This document shows positions 28,985 to 63,214 of a stretch of 64,000 nt of DNA, one piece after another. The position numbers and the translations under genes were made by a program. The notes under the pieces were generated by a model that saw only the letters and a program-made list of their open reading frames with translations, searched no databases and was not told where the DNA came from. Within the stretch, counting starts at the first letter, position 1. The number at the start of each line of letters is the position of its first letter. Source of the stretch: Octopus vulgaris (taxonomy: Eukaryota); assembly GCA_951406725.2 (NCBI GenBank), contig OX597815.1, positions 163,122,001 through 163,186,000 on the forward strand, given 5' to 3'.

Positions 28985-29900
28985 TTAGGTTGATGCAAAG
29001 GTAATGGCCGAGTTTAAGGTCTCTATTAAAAATGAAAAAGCCCATAATTAATACAATATTTATTTGTTAACATAATTTCCATTGCTTTCTAGAGCTTCAT
29101 TCCATCTGTCAACAAGCTTATAAATGCCACATTTGTAAAATTGTTTAGGTTTTGATGTGAAATATGAATCCAACTTATTTTCAAACTCTTCTCTTGATGT
29201 CAACCTAAGACCATTCAAATGGTTCTGTAGTCCCCGAAACAAGTGATAATCAGGAGCAAAGTCTAGACAATTTGGAAGATGAAGCAATATTTCTCAACCA
29301 AGCTTTTCCAAGAGATTCTTTGGTCAGTAGAGCTGTGTTAGGACAAGCATTATCATGGTGGAAGATGACACCCTTTCTGTGGACTAAGTAAGGTCGCTTT
29401 CTGTTCAAAGCAGCTTTCAAACAATGAAGTTGATCACAGTAGAGATTACCAGTAATTGTTTGATTGTTGTCTAACAGTTTGTAACAGACAATTCCTTTAA
29501 CATCTCACCACACACTCAACATGATCTTCCTTGGATGAAGTCCTCCTCTTGGTTGTTGAACAGGTCTTCCTCCTCGACTGACCTATGATTGGCAGCATTT
29601 GACATTATGGTAAAGGATCCACTTCTCATCACCTACAACAAGCCTTCCTAAAAATAATTCCATAAGATGTCGTGAAAGCAATGACTGACAACAAACAACG
29701 TGCTGTTGCAGATTCTCTAGAGACAGTTCATCCAGAACCCATTTTCCAACCACTGAAACCTTTCTGATCCTTTTCAGTTGGCATAGAAAAGTTGTGTGGG
29801 CTACGTTAAACTATTCTGCAAGTTCTCTACAAGTAGCAGTTGGATTTTCTGTGGCAACAGCTACCAACTGTTTTGAACGACCTTAATTTGGCTTGTCTTC
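28985..29900 (-). mobile_element. Degenerate mariner transposon with an Hsmar1/MADE1-like TIR
   Basis: TA-TTAGGTTGATGCAAAGGTAAT TIR. Translation LDFAPDYHLFRGLQNHL...GIYKLVDRWNEALESNGNY (SPDLAPxDYHLF region), with upstream FHHDNA. Confidence 0.85.
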
Positions 29901-55092: not shown

Positions 55093-55321
55093 CTTAAAGG
55101 TGGTGGCAAACTGGCAGAATTGTTAGCAGGCTGGGCAAAATGCTTAGTGGTATTTCGTCTGTTGCAATGTTCTGAGATCAAATTCCGAAGAGGTTGACTT
55201 TGCCTTTCATCCTTTCAGGGGCGATTAATTAAGTACCAGTGAAACACTGGGGTCGATGTAATCGACTTATCCCCTCCCACCAAAATGACTGCCCTTGTGG
55301 CAAAATTTGAAACCATAATTG

Positions 55322-55773
55322 TTATTATTACCTCTACCTTATTGAAGGTGGAGGTATTGTTTTCAGTCGTATTTGTTTGTTTGTCCGTGGATAAGATATC
55401 TCAAGAACTGCTGGGTGGATTTGGATGAAACTTTCAGGGATGTCTGGCCTTGTGACTGACACAAACTGATTATATTTTGGGATTAATCTGGTACCGAACA
55501 AGGATTCTGGATTATTTTTCATGTTTTTTTTACTTTATCTTTGAGAGTGGTCAGGTTAACTTTTCATATTCTCGTTTGTGAGTGCAGTCAGGTTTATTTC
55601 AGATATTCTCTTTTTAAAAATCATCTCTGGCTAATCATTGAGAGGGGGTTGGTGTTGCCTTGGTGGAAGTTTGCGTTCTCTAAGTACTTTTGTTATTATT
55701 ATTATTGTTGTTATTATTATTGTTATTGTTGTTGTTGTTGTTGTTATTGTTATTATTATTATTATTATTATTA

Positions 55774-55814
<41 letters not shown>

Positions 55815-55985
55815 TCCACCTTAGCGTAGATGGAGGTATTGTTTTCAGTTGTGTTTGTTTTTTTGTCCGTGGATGGATTCAGATGAAACTCTCAATCATG
55901 TTTGGCCTCATGACTGGCATGAACTGATTAGATTTTAGGACCAATCTGGTACTGGACAGGGATTCTGGATTATTTGTTCTATTTA
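55322..55985 (+). mobile_element. Two Helentron-associated (DINE-1/HINE-like) non-autonomous elements (55322-55690, 55807-55985)
   Basis: TTATTACCTC(T/C)ACC...GGAGGTATTG sub-terminal inverted repeat, a TGTT repeat, and a 3' GGTGGAAGT..GCGTTCTCTAAGTACTTTT end. Confidence 0.55.
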
Positions 55986-56343
55986 CTTTACATGATTACG
56001 ATCTTACATTGACTTTCAAGTCTTCCTCAATTATCTCCCTTTAGGCTGTTTCTGAAGTTTTATTTTCAGTACTCTGTTATTAATTTTACTCGCGTCTGTA
56101 TCTTAGTAGAAACTGATGGATTAAAAAATCAAGCTACATAAACAAACGGCAGAAAAACCGTTCAGAAATTAAATAACATTAACATATTTTTATAATATAT
56201 ATATTATGTATTATAAGTTCAGCAAAAATTTAGATTCAAATGAATATGGTACTTAATTTAGATGCACCAGAATTTTGTATGGTGTTATCCATAAAAATTT
56301 GTGGGGTGATTATAATCAAAATAAGCAACAAGAATGACTCCGG

Positions 56344-56436
56344 TAATTTGGTACAATTGTTTCGCACTACATCATTTTATTAAATGTTGTAAGTATTGCA
56401 ACAGATTTAAGATGCTGTGTGCTCATCAGCCAATTA
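56344..56436 (-). ncRNA. Type I hammerhead ribozyme with an intact core
   Basis: TTGG-CTGATGA-GCAC...GTGC-GAA-ACAATTGT-A|CCAA. All core positions are present, with a GUA cleavage triplet. Confidence 0.75.
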
Positions 56437-56727
56437 TAGAGGTTTTCCATTAATACAAAAGTTTTCAAATCAAGTGGCAACATTATAGAGAAGGTAGATA
56501 TACAGACAAAGATGTAGATTTAAATTTTAAGAACATATGAGGTAGTGAAGTCCAACCACTGACTGACCAAGCTATGGCTGTACCTAACATAGCTTGGTCA
56601 GTCAGTGGTTGGACTTCACTACCTCATATGTTCTTAAAATTTAAATCTACATCTTTGTCTGTATATCTACCTTCTCTATAATGTTGCCACTTGATTTGAA
56701 AACTTTTGTATTAATGGAAAACCTCTA

Positions 56728-56820
56728 TAATTGGCTGATGAGTACTCAGCATCTTAAATATGTTGTAATACTTACAACATTTAATAAAATGATGTAGTGC
56801 GAAGCAATTGTACCAAATTA
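56728..56820 (+). ncRNA. Type I hammerhead mirror copy with GAAA changed to GAAG
   Basis: TTGG-CTGATGA-GTAC...GTGC-GAAG-CAATTGT-A|CCAA. Confidence 0.6.
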
Positions 56821-57214
56821 CCAGAGTCATTCTTCTTGCTTATTTTGATTATTATGTATTATATGTACATATTAAGACTTTTCAGTATACTTACATATAT
56901 ACATATATCTATCCATCGATCTAAAACAACAGGAATGCTAAAGGAAGGCCGGAATTTAAGTGAAGAGAAAACCAAAAGCTCTCATACTATTCATATAAAA
57001 TTTCCCGAGTAGAACCTATTATTACCTCTGCCTTTGAAACTATTTTGAATGGTGAGTTTGTTAACTTTGGCTTGTATTAGATAAACTATTTATTACTGTT
57101 ACTAAATTTTCTACAGCCTCCTACACATTCCATGACTAACAGTGAGATCGATCTGGTACTGGACAATTGGATTATTTTTCTGGGTTTTTTTACTTAATTT
57201 TTACTTAATTTCTT

Positions 57215-61920: not shown

Positions 61921-63214
61921 GTGAAGGTTGGGTGAAAAGTTCATAGGCTGATGAAGATAGTTTCATGGAATATGACCAAATGAGATTTGTTTTTCAACAT
62001 TGTCCATCTTGTGGTCCGCACAGTTGTTCCATGTGTTGTAGTGCTTGGATCCCATTGGTGAAGAAGCTTTCGTCCTCTTGGTTAAAAAAGTCACCAACAG
62101 CAGATATGACATCGTCATTACTGCAATATTGGTTCCCAGCCAAATGTTTTTTTATGTTGGGGAACAGATGATAGTCAGATGGAACCAAATCAGGAGAATG
62201 GGGAGGCTGTTTAACCAATTCAAATACAAACTCGCATACAGTAGCCATTGAAACCAAGAATCTGTGTGCTGGTGCATTGACCTGATGAAACAAGACCCCT
62301 TTTGTCAGTTTTCCTGGGCATTTGGTCTTGATAGCTTTTCATAACCGCCTCAGCAAGTTGGCATAGTTTTCTCCATTGTTGGTGTGGTCCTTTTGAAGAT
62401 AGTTACTAAACACAATGCCTTTTGCATCCCAAAAATCTAAGGCCATCACCTTCCCTGCAGATGAAACAACCTTGGCCTTCTTTGGAGCTGGTGAGGAGGG
62501 TGTTTCAACTGCATGGATCATCTCTCTGTCTCTGGCTCAAAGTGATGAACCAAACATTCATCCTGGGTTAGGGAGCATTCAAGGGAACCAGCTGGATCCG
62601 ACTCAAACGATGTCAGATTTTCCCATGATTTGATCAGTCTGGTACACTTTTGATCAAGTGTCAGAAGACATGACACCCAGCAAGCAGAAACCGTTGTCAT
62701 GCCAAATTCGTTGTACAGAATATTCTCAACTCTATCACAGCATATGTTAATAGCATTGACCATTTGATTTACTGTCAATCAGCTGTCAACCATCAGCATG
62801 TGGTGAACACAATGTTTTCTTCAGTGGTGGCATTTGCAGGATATCCAGACCTTAGTTCATCTTCAAGACTCTCCATTTCCTCTCCTAAGTTCAATTGCCC
62901 ACTTTTGCACTTTTGATAAAGCTGGGGCATCATCCCCTAATGGAGCAACCATGTCAGCATGAATGTCCTTGGGGATTAAACCAATTTTCTATCAGCATTT
63001 GATAATGCAATGATGCCGAAATTTGTCCATTTTCAACAGAAGTTGCTACTAGTTACTTTTGAAGTCTTCTTTGAAAAGTCAGAGGTTAATTTATCTGGAA
63101 AGAAACAATGCAGTTATTCATAAGAAGGGTTGAAATTAATGCATCATACAATATTTCACAGCTCTAGCATCACACCTTCATAGTCAGCCAATGAACTTTT
63201 TCAGTACACCCCTT
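61921..63214 (-). mobile_element. Full-length degenerate mariner (irritans/Hsmar2-like), about 1.3 kb
   Basis: WVSCLLT, TQDECLVHHFEPET, KKAKVVSSAGKVMA..FWDAKGI, FHQVNAPAH, PPHSPDLVPSDYHLF. TIR-like TGAAAAGTTCATAGGCTGA and TCAGCCAATGAACTTTTTCA. Confidence 0.92.

Follow-up and report, generated by a model that had tools for sequence, protein, structure and literature searches.

Penelope-like elements (PLEs) that carry a C-terminal endonuclease (EN+) include the Hydra clade of Craig et al. (2021; PMC8557442), one described member of which is Hydra-1_Obim from Octopus bimaculoides. The elements described in PMC3846280 display inverted pseudo-LTRs (pLTRs), a one-sided tail of 31 bp, target duplications, palindromes at the junctions and Asn-rich inserts; self-priming was proposed there, and zero-loop palindromes were interpreted in the same terms. 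Dual hammerhead motifs on opposite strands, lying 100-700 bp apart, and a low activity of dimers were reported by Cervera and de la Pena (2014; PMC4209133). In PAc, a Poseidon element of Anolis (Frangieh et al. 2024; PMC11167929), there are two start sites for reverse transcription (RT) and a hammerhead assisted by protein; both strands are extended and a dimer is predicted. How the head-to-head inverted ends of Penelopes originate is an open question in these sources (PMC3846280, PMC8557442, PMC11167929). A published descriptor of the hammerhead core allows a spacer of 7-17 nt, and precedents for longer spacing are approximately 52 nt in the spike-moss element PLE-X1_sMoe and 35-50 nt in the 'half cores' of Naiads, one of which comes from Octopus.

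Here we describe an insertion in Octopus vulgaris, contained in a window (the whole stretch of DNA analysed) of 64,000 nt. A sequence-only reading of this window had recognised a foldback insertion at 56202-56863 with 265-bp arms, an 11-nt loop, a 14-bp target-site duplication and no open reading frame (ORF), and all of these hold. The inverted repeat (56309-56576 and 56588-56855) is 268 nt long and 97% complementary around an 11-nt loop; the element's own arm is shorter, 262-265 bp, because a few bases at the outer end of the repeat also belong to the target duplication. The 14-bp direct repeat (56202-56215 and 56850-56863) is exact and has only these two copies in the window, while no ORF of at least 120 aa in the window's ORF list overlaps the insertion. 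Absent from the earlier description was a tail of approximately 95 nt (56216-56311), which is found on the left side only, so that the insert is asymmetric. The features, in window coordinates, are:

56202-56215, plus strand: left target-site duplication, 14 bp, TA-rich, an exact direct repeat; family ends nearly all abut (TA)n
56216-56311, minus strand: one-sided 3' tail of about 95 nt; the same sequence runs into the ORF in the parent element L031
56312-56576, minus strand: left arm, a sense copy of the 3' pLTR (the element's 3' non-coding end), 95% identical to both pLTR copies of L031
56345-56436, minus strand: type I hammerhead motif; its core is intact, helix II measures 59 nt and helix III is the palindrome CAAUUG; pairing kept in family copies
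56577-56587, minus strand: 11-nt loop, parental sequence forming the further 5' extension of the tailed arm; its junction is unique in the genome
56588-56849, plus strand: right arm, the same pLTR segment in inverted orientation and without the tail, with all 12 non-majority alleles in common with the left arm
56728-56819, plus strand: mirror hammerhead motif, likely inactive, with GAAG for GAAA; the G occurs in 4/107 family arms
56850-56863, plus strand: right copy of the 14-bp target-site duplication, at a junction that contigs from two runs cross

The arms overlap by 1 nt at the apex junction (56588), and the loop is ordinary parental sequence that continues the left arm. Eight mismatches distinguish the two arms, one at the outer edge beyond the arm proper and seven within 56329-56421, and the innermost 155 bp of the palindrome pair perfectly. 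The full hairpin has a predicted fold of -440.8 kcal/mol, compared with -123.8 for shuffled sequences, and this is consistent with the earlier suggestion that a read-through transcript would pair along its entire length and bury both ribozymes; the siRNA, ADAR and cruciform roles that the earlier reading attached to the hairpin are putative. With its head-to-head pLTRs, one-sided tail and a duplication around the whole insert, the locus resembles the published Penelope architecture (PMC3846280; Craig et al. 2021, Fig. 2), and the inverted, one-tailed layout is itself already in print (PMC3846280, PMC8557442). Around the insertion lie three copies of another, unrelated repeat, which is interspersed and of high copy number (window 55315-55538, 55797-55996 and 57017-57202). 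A Pfam scan of 145 of the 170 filtered ORFs of the window returned two minus-strand fragments of Transposase_1 (29253-29504 and 62342-62536) and nothing else; no host exon was identified, at a resolution that short exons would escape.

On sequence evidence, the insertion is a 5'-truncated, non-coding, dead copy of a coding Penelope-like retrotransposon with Hydra-clade motifs, and we regard its status as a truncated PLE copy as close to certain. A 30-mer from the left arm and tail has 608 exact matches genome-wide and none for the reversed control; the left arm with its tail has 2,483 candidate matches in the 2.8-Gb genome, and the 40 that were scored are 94-100% identical. Longer family copies extend upstream into an ORF that ends in a GIY-YIG domain. 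A near-complete parent, L031 (G000:C14:19641000-19650900, minus strand), has the order pLTR, ORF, pLTR with tail, and a further pLTR, with an Asn-rich linker between the RT and GIY-YIG parts, and is broken by frameshifts; all long parent copies observed carry frameshifts or stops. In the upstream copy of L031 the tail is non-coding and lies between the hammerhead and the start of the ORF, the first Met following approximately 50 nt further on. The GIY-YIG domain scores 23 bits against PF01541 (cut-off 22.6). The RT part has no Pfam match of its own; it has 181 homologues, and PF00078 is present in 3 of the 120 listed, among which the named relatives of highest identity are Octopus sinensis proteins (77%). 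Public annotations call such pieces of the parent uncharacterised or kinase-like proteins. The Penelope origin proposed by the sequence-only reading is thereby borne out, and the parent that it suggested looking for has been found.

The parent has the characters of an EN+ PLE, namely a single ORF with RT and GIY-YIG endonuclease, pLTRs in partial tandem, an inverted 5'-truncated copy and a one-sided tail. Near the start of one protein piece (P0002) DKG is changed to DKT, and a second piece (P0001), inspected by eye, has a CxCX5C linker and CxxC and CxH around a conserved E and N, with no CCHH at its usual positions. Nearly all family ends abut (TA)n, and in one parent copy RWI occupies the N-terminal place expected for the RWK motif of the Hydra clade. 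Set against the definition of that clade in section 11 of PMC8557442, DKT, the linker, the CxxC and CxH motifs and the (TA)n target fit a Hydra-clade assignment, which is made by motifs; our initial guess, the Neptune clade, was abandoned on the same definition. Shared with the clade are the order of RT and GIY-YIG, DKT, CxCX5C, terminal CxxC and CxH, the (TA)n target and a hammerhead in the pLTR (PMC8557442), and Penelope-13_HM has a comparable inverted, 5'-truncated copy at its 5' end (File S1, PMC8557442). The octopus family differs in its unit of approximately 3.4 kb with an Asn-rich linker (L031), whereas Hydra-clade units are generally under 3 kb, in its tail of approximately 95 nt rather than 30-40 nt (PMC8557442), and in a helix II of 59 nt, compared with a range of 11-25 nt among the Hydra entries in File S2 (PMC8557442) and approximately 22 nt, by our own count, in Hydra-1_oBim. 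Six loci (L072, L094, L096, L101, L145 and L148) have a different common sequence upstream of position -555, which indicates a family with at least two 3' non-coding variants. Fragments of other Penelope-like ORFs adjoin some family copies (L026:2342-3079 minus, L059:2518-4833 minus and L041:7684-8499), in line with shared (TA)n targets.

The layout of the family was surveyed in 87 loci drawn from the first 100 of the 608 30-mer matches, the window locus included; one single copy (L119, 79% identity) was dropped by an 80% filter, leaving 86 mapped loci. Head-to-head pairs are present at 43 of these 86, and every pair comprises one tailed and one tail-less arm (p about 2e-14 for 43/43 under independent choice of ends). 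At three 'singles' there is also an inverted arm, very short but again in a tailed and tail-less combination, giving 46 of the 87 loci with the layout seen in the window, which agrees with the integration by inverted ends put forward from the window alone. Since pairs have a double chance of being sampled and ten of them match in both arms, the corrected share is approximately 40%. Arm mismatch is 3.0% within tight pairs and 4.4% within the others, against 6.6% for random arms, and this low mismatch indicates that the arms of a pair share a donor; at the window locus all 12 non-majority alleles are common to both arms.

Family copies end mostly at the outer end of the tail or 95 nt short of it. 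These two ends are the two TTATAAT words, 95 nt apart and downstream of the hammerhead; the 5' copy of the parent has seven TATA words over 720 nt, and these are the only two of that form. In 25 of the 40 directly joined pairs the 5' breakpoints fall within 20 nt of each other, where permutation gave a mean of 6.2 and a maximum of 15 in 20,000; breakpoints are equal in five pairs, and the tail-less arm is the longer in 23/40, by more than 20 nt in six. Parsing succeeded for 29 of the 40 direct junctions, three others lying beyond the reference range and eight failing the register check. Extra bases are present at 13 of the 29, while nine of the other 16 have an overlap of at least 2 nt, against an expectation of 24% (p 0.005), and loops among family pairs reach 850 nt. 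Junction palindromes and Asn-rich ORF inserts are common to the octopus family and the elements of PMC3846280. Where PMC3846280, PMC8557442 and PMC4209133 give examples, the features are counted here: tailed with tail-less pairing in 46/46 and coincident breakpoints in 25/40, both ends mapping to the same 7-nt word. Two other hammerhead families (L152:1431-1895 and L155:1439-1839) also form palindromes in head-to-head orientation, located inside (TA)n and extended on one side.

The coincident breakpoints, together with two ends that both lie at TTATAAT, favour a reading in which two primed cDNAs, one from each cut strand of the target, were joined end to end at the points where they stalled, and we consider this the probable origin of the palindrome, with appreciable doubt. 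The GIY-YIG nuclease would nick the two target strands 14 bp apart; two primers ending in TA would anneal to the two TTATAAT words, which probably belong to a single RNA; the two reverse transcriptases would stop near the same point, in this case 11 nt apart; and end joining would seal the apex, either through an overlap of 0-5 nt or with a small number of bases added. The hammerheads are passengers of the pLTR in the insertion; those of the parent would act on tandem transcripts, cleaving them as dimers that form by way of the palindromic helix III and probably have help from protein. The parent, the truncation, the tailed and tail-less arms, the TA-rich target duplication and a single donor haplotype for both arms are established directly; the mechanism is read solely from such end products, no intermediate having been seen. 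PAc offers a close parallel, with two start sites that define a tail, a hammerhead upstream of them, an AT-rich target and two strands that are each cut and extended (PMC11167929). It differs in that its ORF begins within stem II, whereas hammerhead and tail are non-coding in the octopus family, and in that its start sites lack homology to the DNA that is cut (PMC11167929), whereas TATA pairing is proposed for the octopus family and both of its ends match the TA target.

A single tail-primed cDNA might instead fold back on itself, copy as far as the inner TTATAAT and anneal to the other TA-rich end of the target. We judge such a snap-back unlikely but worth serious consideration, because with one enzyme it accounts for the tight apex (25/40), the common haplotype and the strict pairing of tailed with tail-less arms. 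It sits poorly with the excess length of the tail-less arm in 23 of the 40 pairs; an arm longer by more than 20 nt, as in six of them, is not directly possible by tail-primed fold-back and supports priming at two sites, although later asymmetric deletion at the centre of a palindrome could lengthen either arm, so that these six do not rule against snap-back. The five pairs with equal breakpoints also count against it, since there is no loop to fold around, and tail-less ends are found without any inverted partner. In the model of Arkhipova et al. (2013), an antisense transcript serves for self-priming and the endonuclease trims the two ends; it was put forward for rotifer Penelopes, which have the same head-to-head layout (PMC3846280). 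For the octopus family it appears improbable: the added bases at 13/29 junctions and the loops of up to 850 nt resemble end joining, and for another PLE priming on sense RNA at two sites was shown in vitro (PMC11167929).

The sequence-only reading had favoured a non-autonomous, ribozyme-bearing palindromic retro-element, and this part of it fails. The apex junction has one match in the 2.8-Gb genome (degenerate sites, one mismatch allowed), other family foldbacks turn at many different positions, and a coding parent exists; given that the loop is parental sequence and the junction was found once, the insert is a one-off truncated copy and not a spreading unit. That the palindrome spreads as a unit is contradicted by these data. 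A self-propagating element of this kind, or a palindrome that the host retains because it functions as dsRNA, is accordingly given very little credence, in spite of a very stable fold and of the perfect inner 155 bp, all seven mismatches (of 257 positions) clustering away from the apex with p about 0.003. In the other long, tight pairs of the family no gradient from the apex is seen (9/460, 11/500, 13/437, 11/307 and 10/233 mismatches per 50-nt bin), on which ground gene conversion from the apex was also rejected, and one of the two ribozyme cores in the window is mutated. Nor is the locus a non-LTR retrozyme, there being two inverted copies and no tandem array of a short hammerhead unit.

A fold-back chimera of the assembly is scarcely credible: no contig bridging the apex was present among those listed from two public runs, but the arms differ at seven sites, the 14-bp duplication is present, the right junction with its rare variants is identical in runs of two studies, and the same layout recurs in about half of the sampled family copies. 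The right junction is crossed without difference by contigs of both runs (X1 and X4), which also carry the GAAG letters of the plus-strand copy, and either run may be the source of the assembly. Among the contigs listed from the public runs, none has a joint that skips the insert (an empty site), and a run guessed to be RNA contributed short pieces only, assignable at family level.

Returning to the reading of two joined cDNAs, the passengers deserve description in their own right. The minus-strand motif comprises CUGAUGA (56429-56423), helix II (56422-56364, 59 nt), GAAA (56363-56360), CAAUUG (56359-56354) and a GUA site, where cleavage is predicted to fall between 56352 and 56351; helix I has 4 bp. 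The outward-facing type I hammerhead in each arm, the stem II of approximately 60 nt, the palindromic stem III and the GUA site are all as the earlier reading had them. The type I core (CUGANGA, GAAA and UH with helices I-III) is complete in the minus copy and fails at GAAA in its plus-strand mirror (core 56735-56812), where GAAG is a rare change, as had also been observed. A change from GAAA to GAAG in the core would likely inactivate the hammerhead. Among 107 family arms, GAAA is present in 102 and GAAG in four.

The minus-strand motif is a predicted self-cutting RNA, and comparison within the family is consistent with this. In an alignment of 69 distinct copies of 85 found (those left out being mostly second arms of the same insertions), 96.5% of pair cells of the drawn structure are kept, a value reached by 0/500 shuffles, while slid controls give 29-51%; a compensatory change from U-A to C-G occurs in 11 of the 69. 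This conservation is support and not proof, because the structure was drawn from the same sequences and the copies are related. The loop of helix III is the palindrome GAUC in 73/107 arms and AAUU in 15, with 13 G-U intermediates and six mismatches; such a switch between two palindromes is the expectation if helix III pairs between two molecules. Against these observations, the hammerhead is not the minimum-energy fold in either copy, RNAalifold on this family prefers a competing hairpin to the GAAA core and does not recover the hammerhead, and helix II of the window copy has a folding z of -1.4. The insertion has no Rfam hammerhead match at the gathering score, nor among its 18 matches to E 10; its Rfam matches are hairpins to miRNA models, far below their cut-offs.

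The CUGANGA and GAAA core, G10.1-C11.1 and a short helix I are shared with the hammerheads of PLEs (PMC4209133) and of retrozymes (PMC7229834; bioRxiv 10.64898/2026.07.22.740005), as is the palindromic helix III with the dimer-type hammerheads found in PLEs and in non-LTR retrozymes (PMC4209133, PMC7229834). What differs is helix II, which is 7-8 bp in PLE (PMC4209133) and retrozyme (PMC7229834) hammerheads and 47-107 nt in those described here. A whole-genome search for the core pattern returned 12,585 matches, of which 12,274 have a helix II of 47-107 nt: 150 at 8-32 nt, 161 at 33-46, 10,544 at 47-77 and 1,730 at 78-107, with 5, 2, 3 and 8 respectively in the reversed controls. The pattern requires that CUGANGA be followed immediately by G and that helix III measure 6 nt; short-stem forms of other shape therefore lie outside these counts. 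The first 30 loci and the window fall into 11 sequence clusters; of these 31 motifs, 22 have a folding z for helix II of -2 or lower, and helix III is palindromic in 22 and self-pairing with G-U in the other nine. When RNAalifold was applied to 16 motifs from other families, the basal part of helix II was recovered, and five of its ten pairs are changed on both sides. A PLE protein match lies within 1.5 kb of only three of the 30 loci, and linking all long-stem motifs to PLE proteins was dropped.

In metagenome loci that encode relatives of the parent RT, 58 hammerhead motifs were present at 48 of 77 loci, and helix II is 10-25 nt in 58/58 even though approximately 120 nt was allowed (0 in reversed sequence). 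The octopus long-stem hammerhead stands as a lineage-specific variant of predicted activity. Two tandem arrays of long-stem hammerheads were also observed (G000:C1:10836774-10838643, with a period of approximately 594 nt, and C1:16526555-16529083, approximately 535 nt), and an inverted copy terminates the second; both are candidate long-helix-II retrozymes. In the literature searched (including PMC6765202), neither a hammerhead class with long helix II nor counts of paired arms such as these came to light, a partial coverage in which absence carries little weight. As far as we found, the coincident breakpoints with TTATAAT ends and the long-helix-II class go beyond what is in print.

The locus itself is ordinary retrotransposon debris: it is a common outcome of a mechanism already described, with probably hundreds of the kind in its family, and the copy probably does nothing, leaving the site likely inert. 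It is the family that is informative, since its countable rules (strict pairing, coincident breakpoints and a 7-nt word) separate the models for inverted Penelope ends and could be tested in the existing in vitro system. Long-helix-II motifs are missed by Rfam and fall beyond the 7-17 nt spacer, so that ribozyme counts in genomes of this kind would be severe underestimates. A broader proposal, which we offer tentatively and hold to be doubtful, is that octopus-type genomes contain more than 12,000 active dimer-type hammerheads with a helix II of 47-107 nt, distributed over many Penelope families, and that insertion by two primers, paired with two TATA-containing words of a single RNA, seeds long, perfect palindromes by the thousand that feed dsRNA editing and silencing. 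If true, this would be an undescribed class, invisible to Rfam and to short-stem descriptors. The animal group to which the octopus belongs is known for heavy A-to-I editing, and the many long palindromes in octopus-type genomes would merit a check as sources of dsRNA. Should the long-stem motifs cleave, the natural design space of the hammerhead would be widened.
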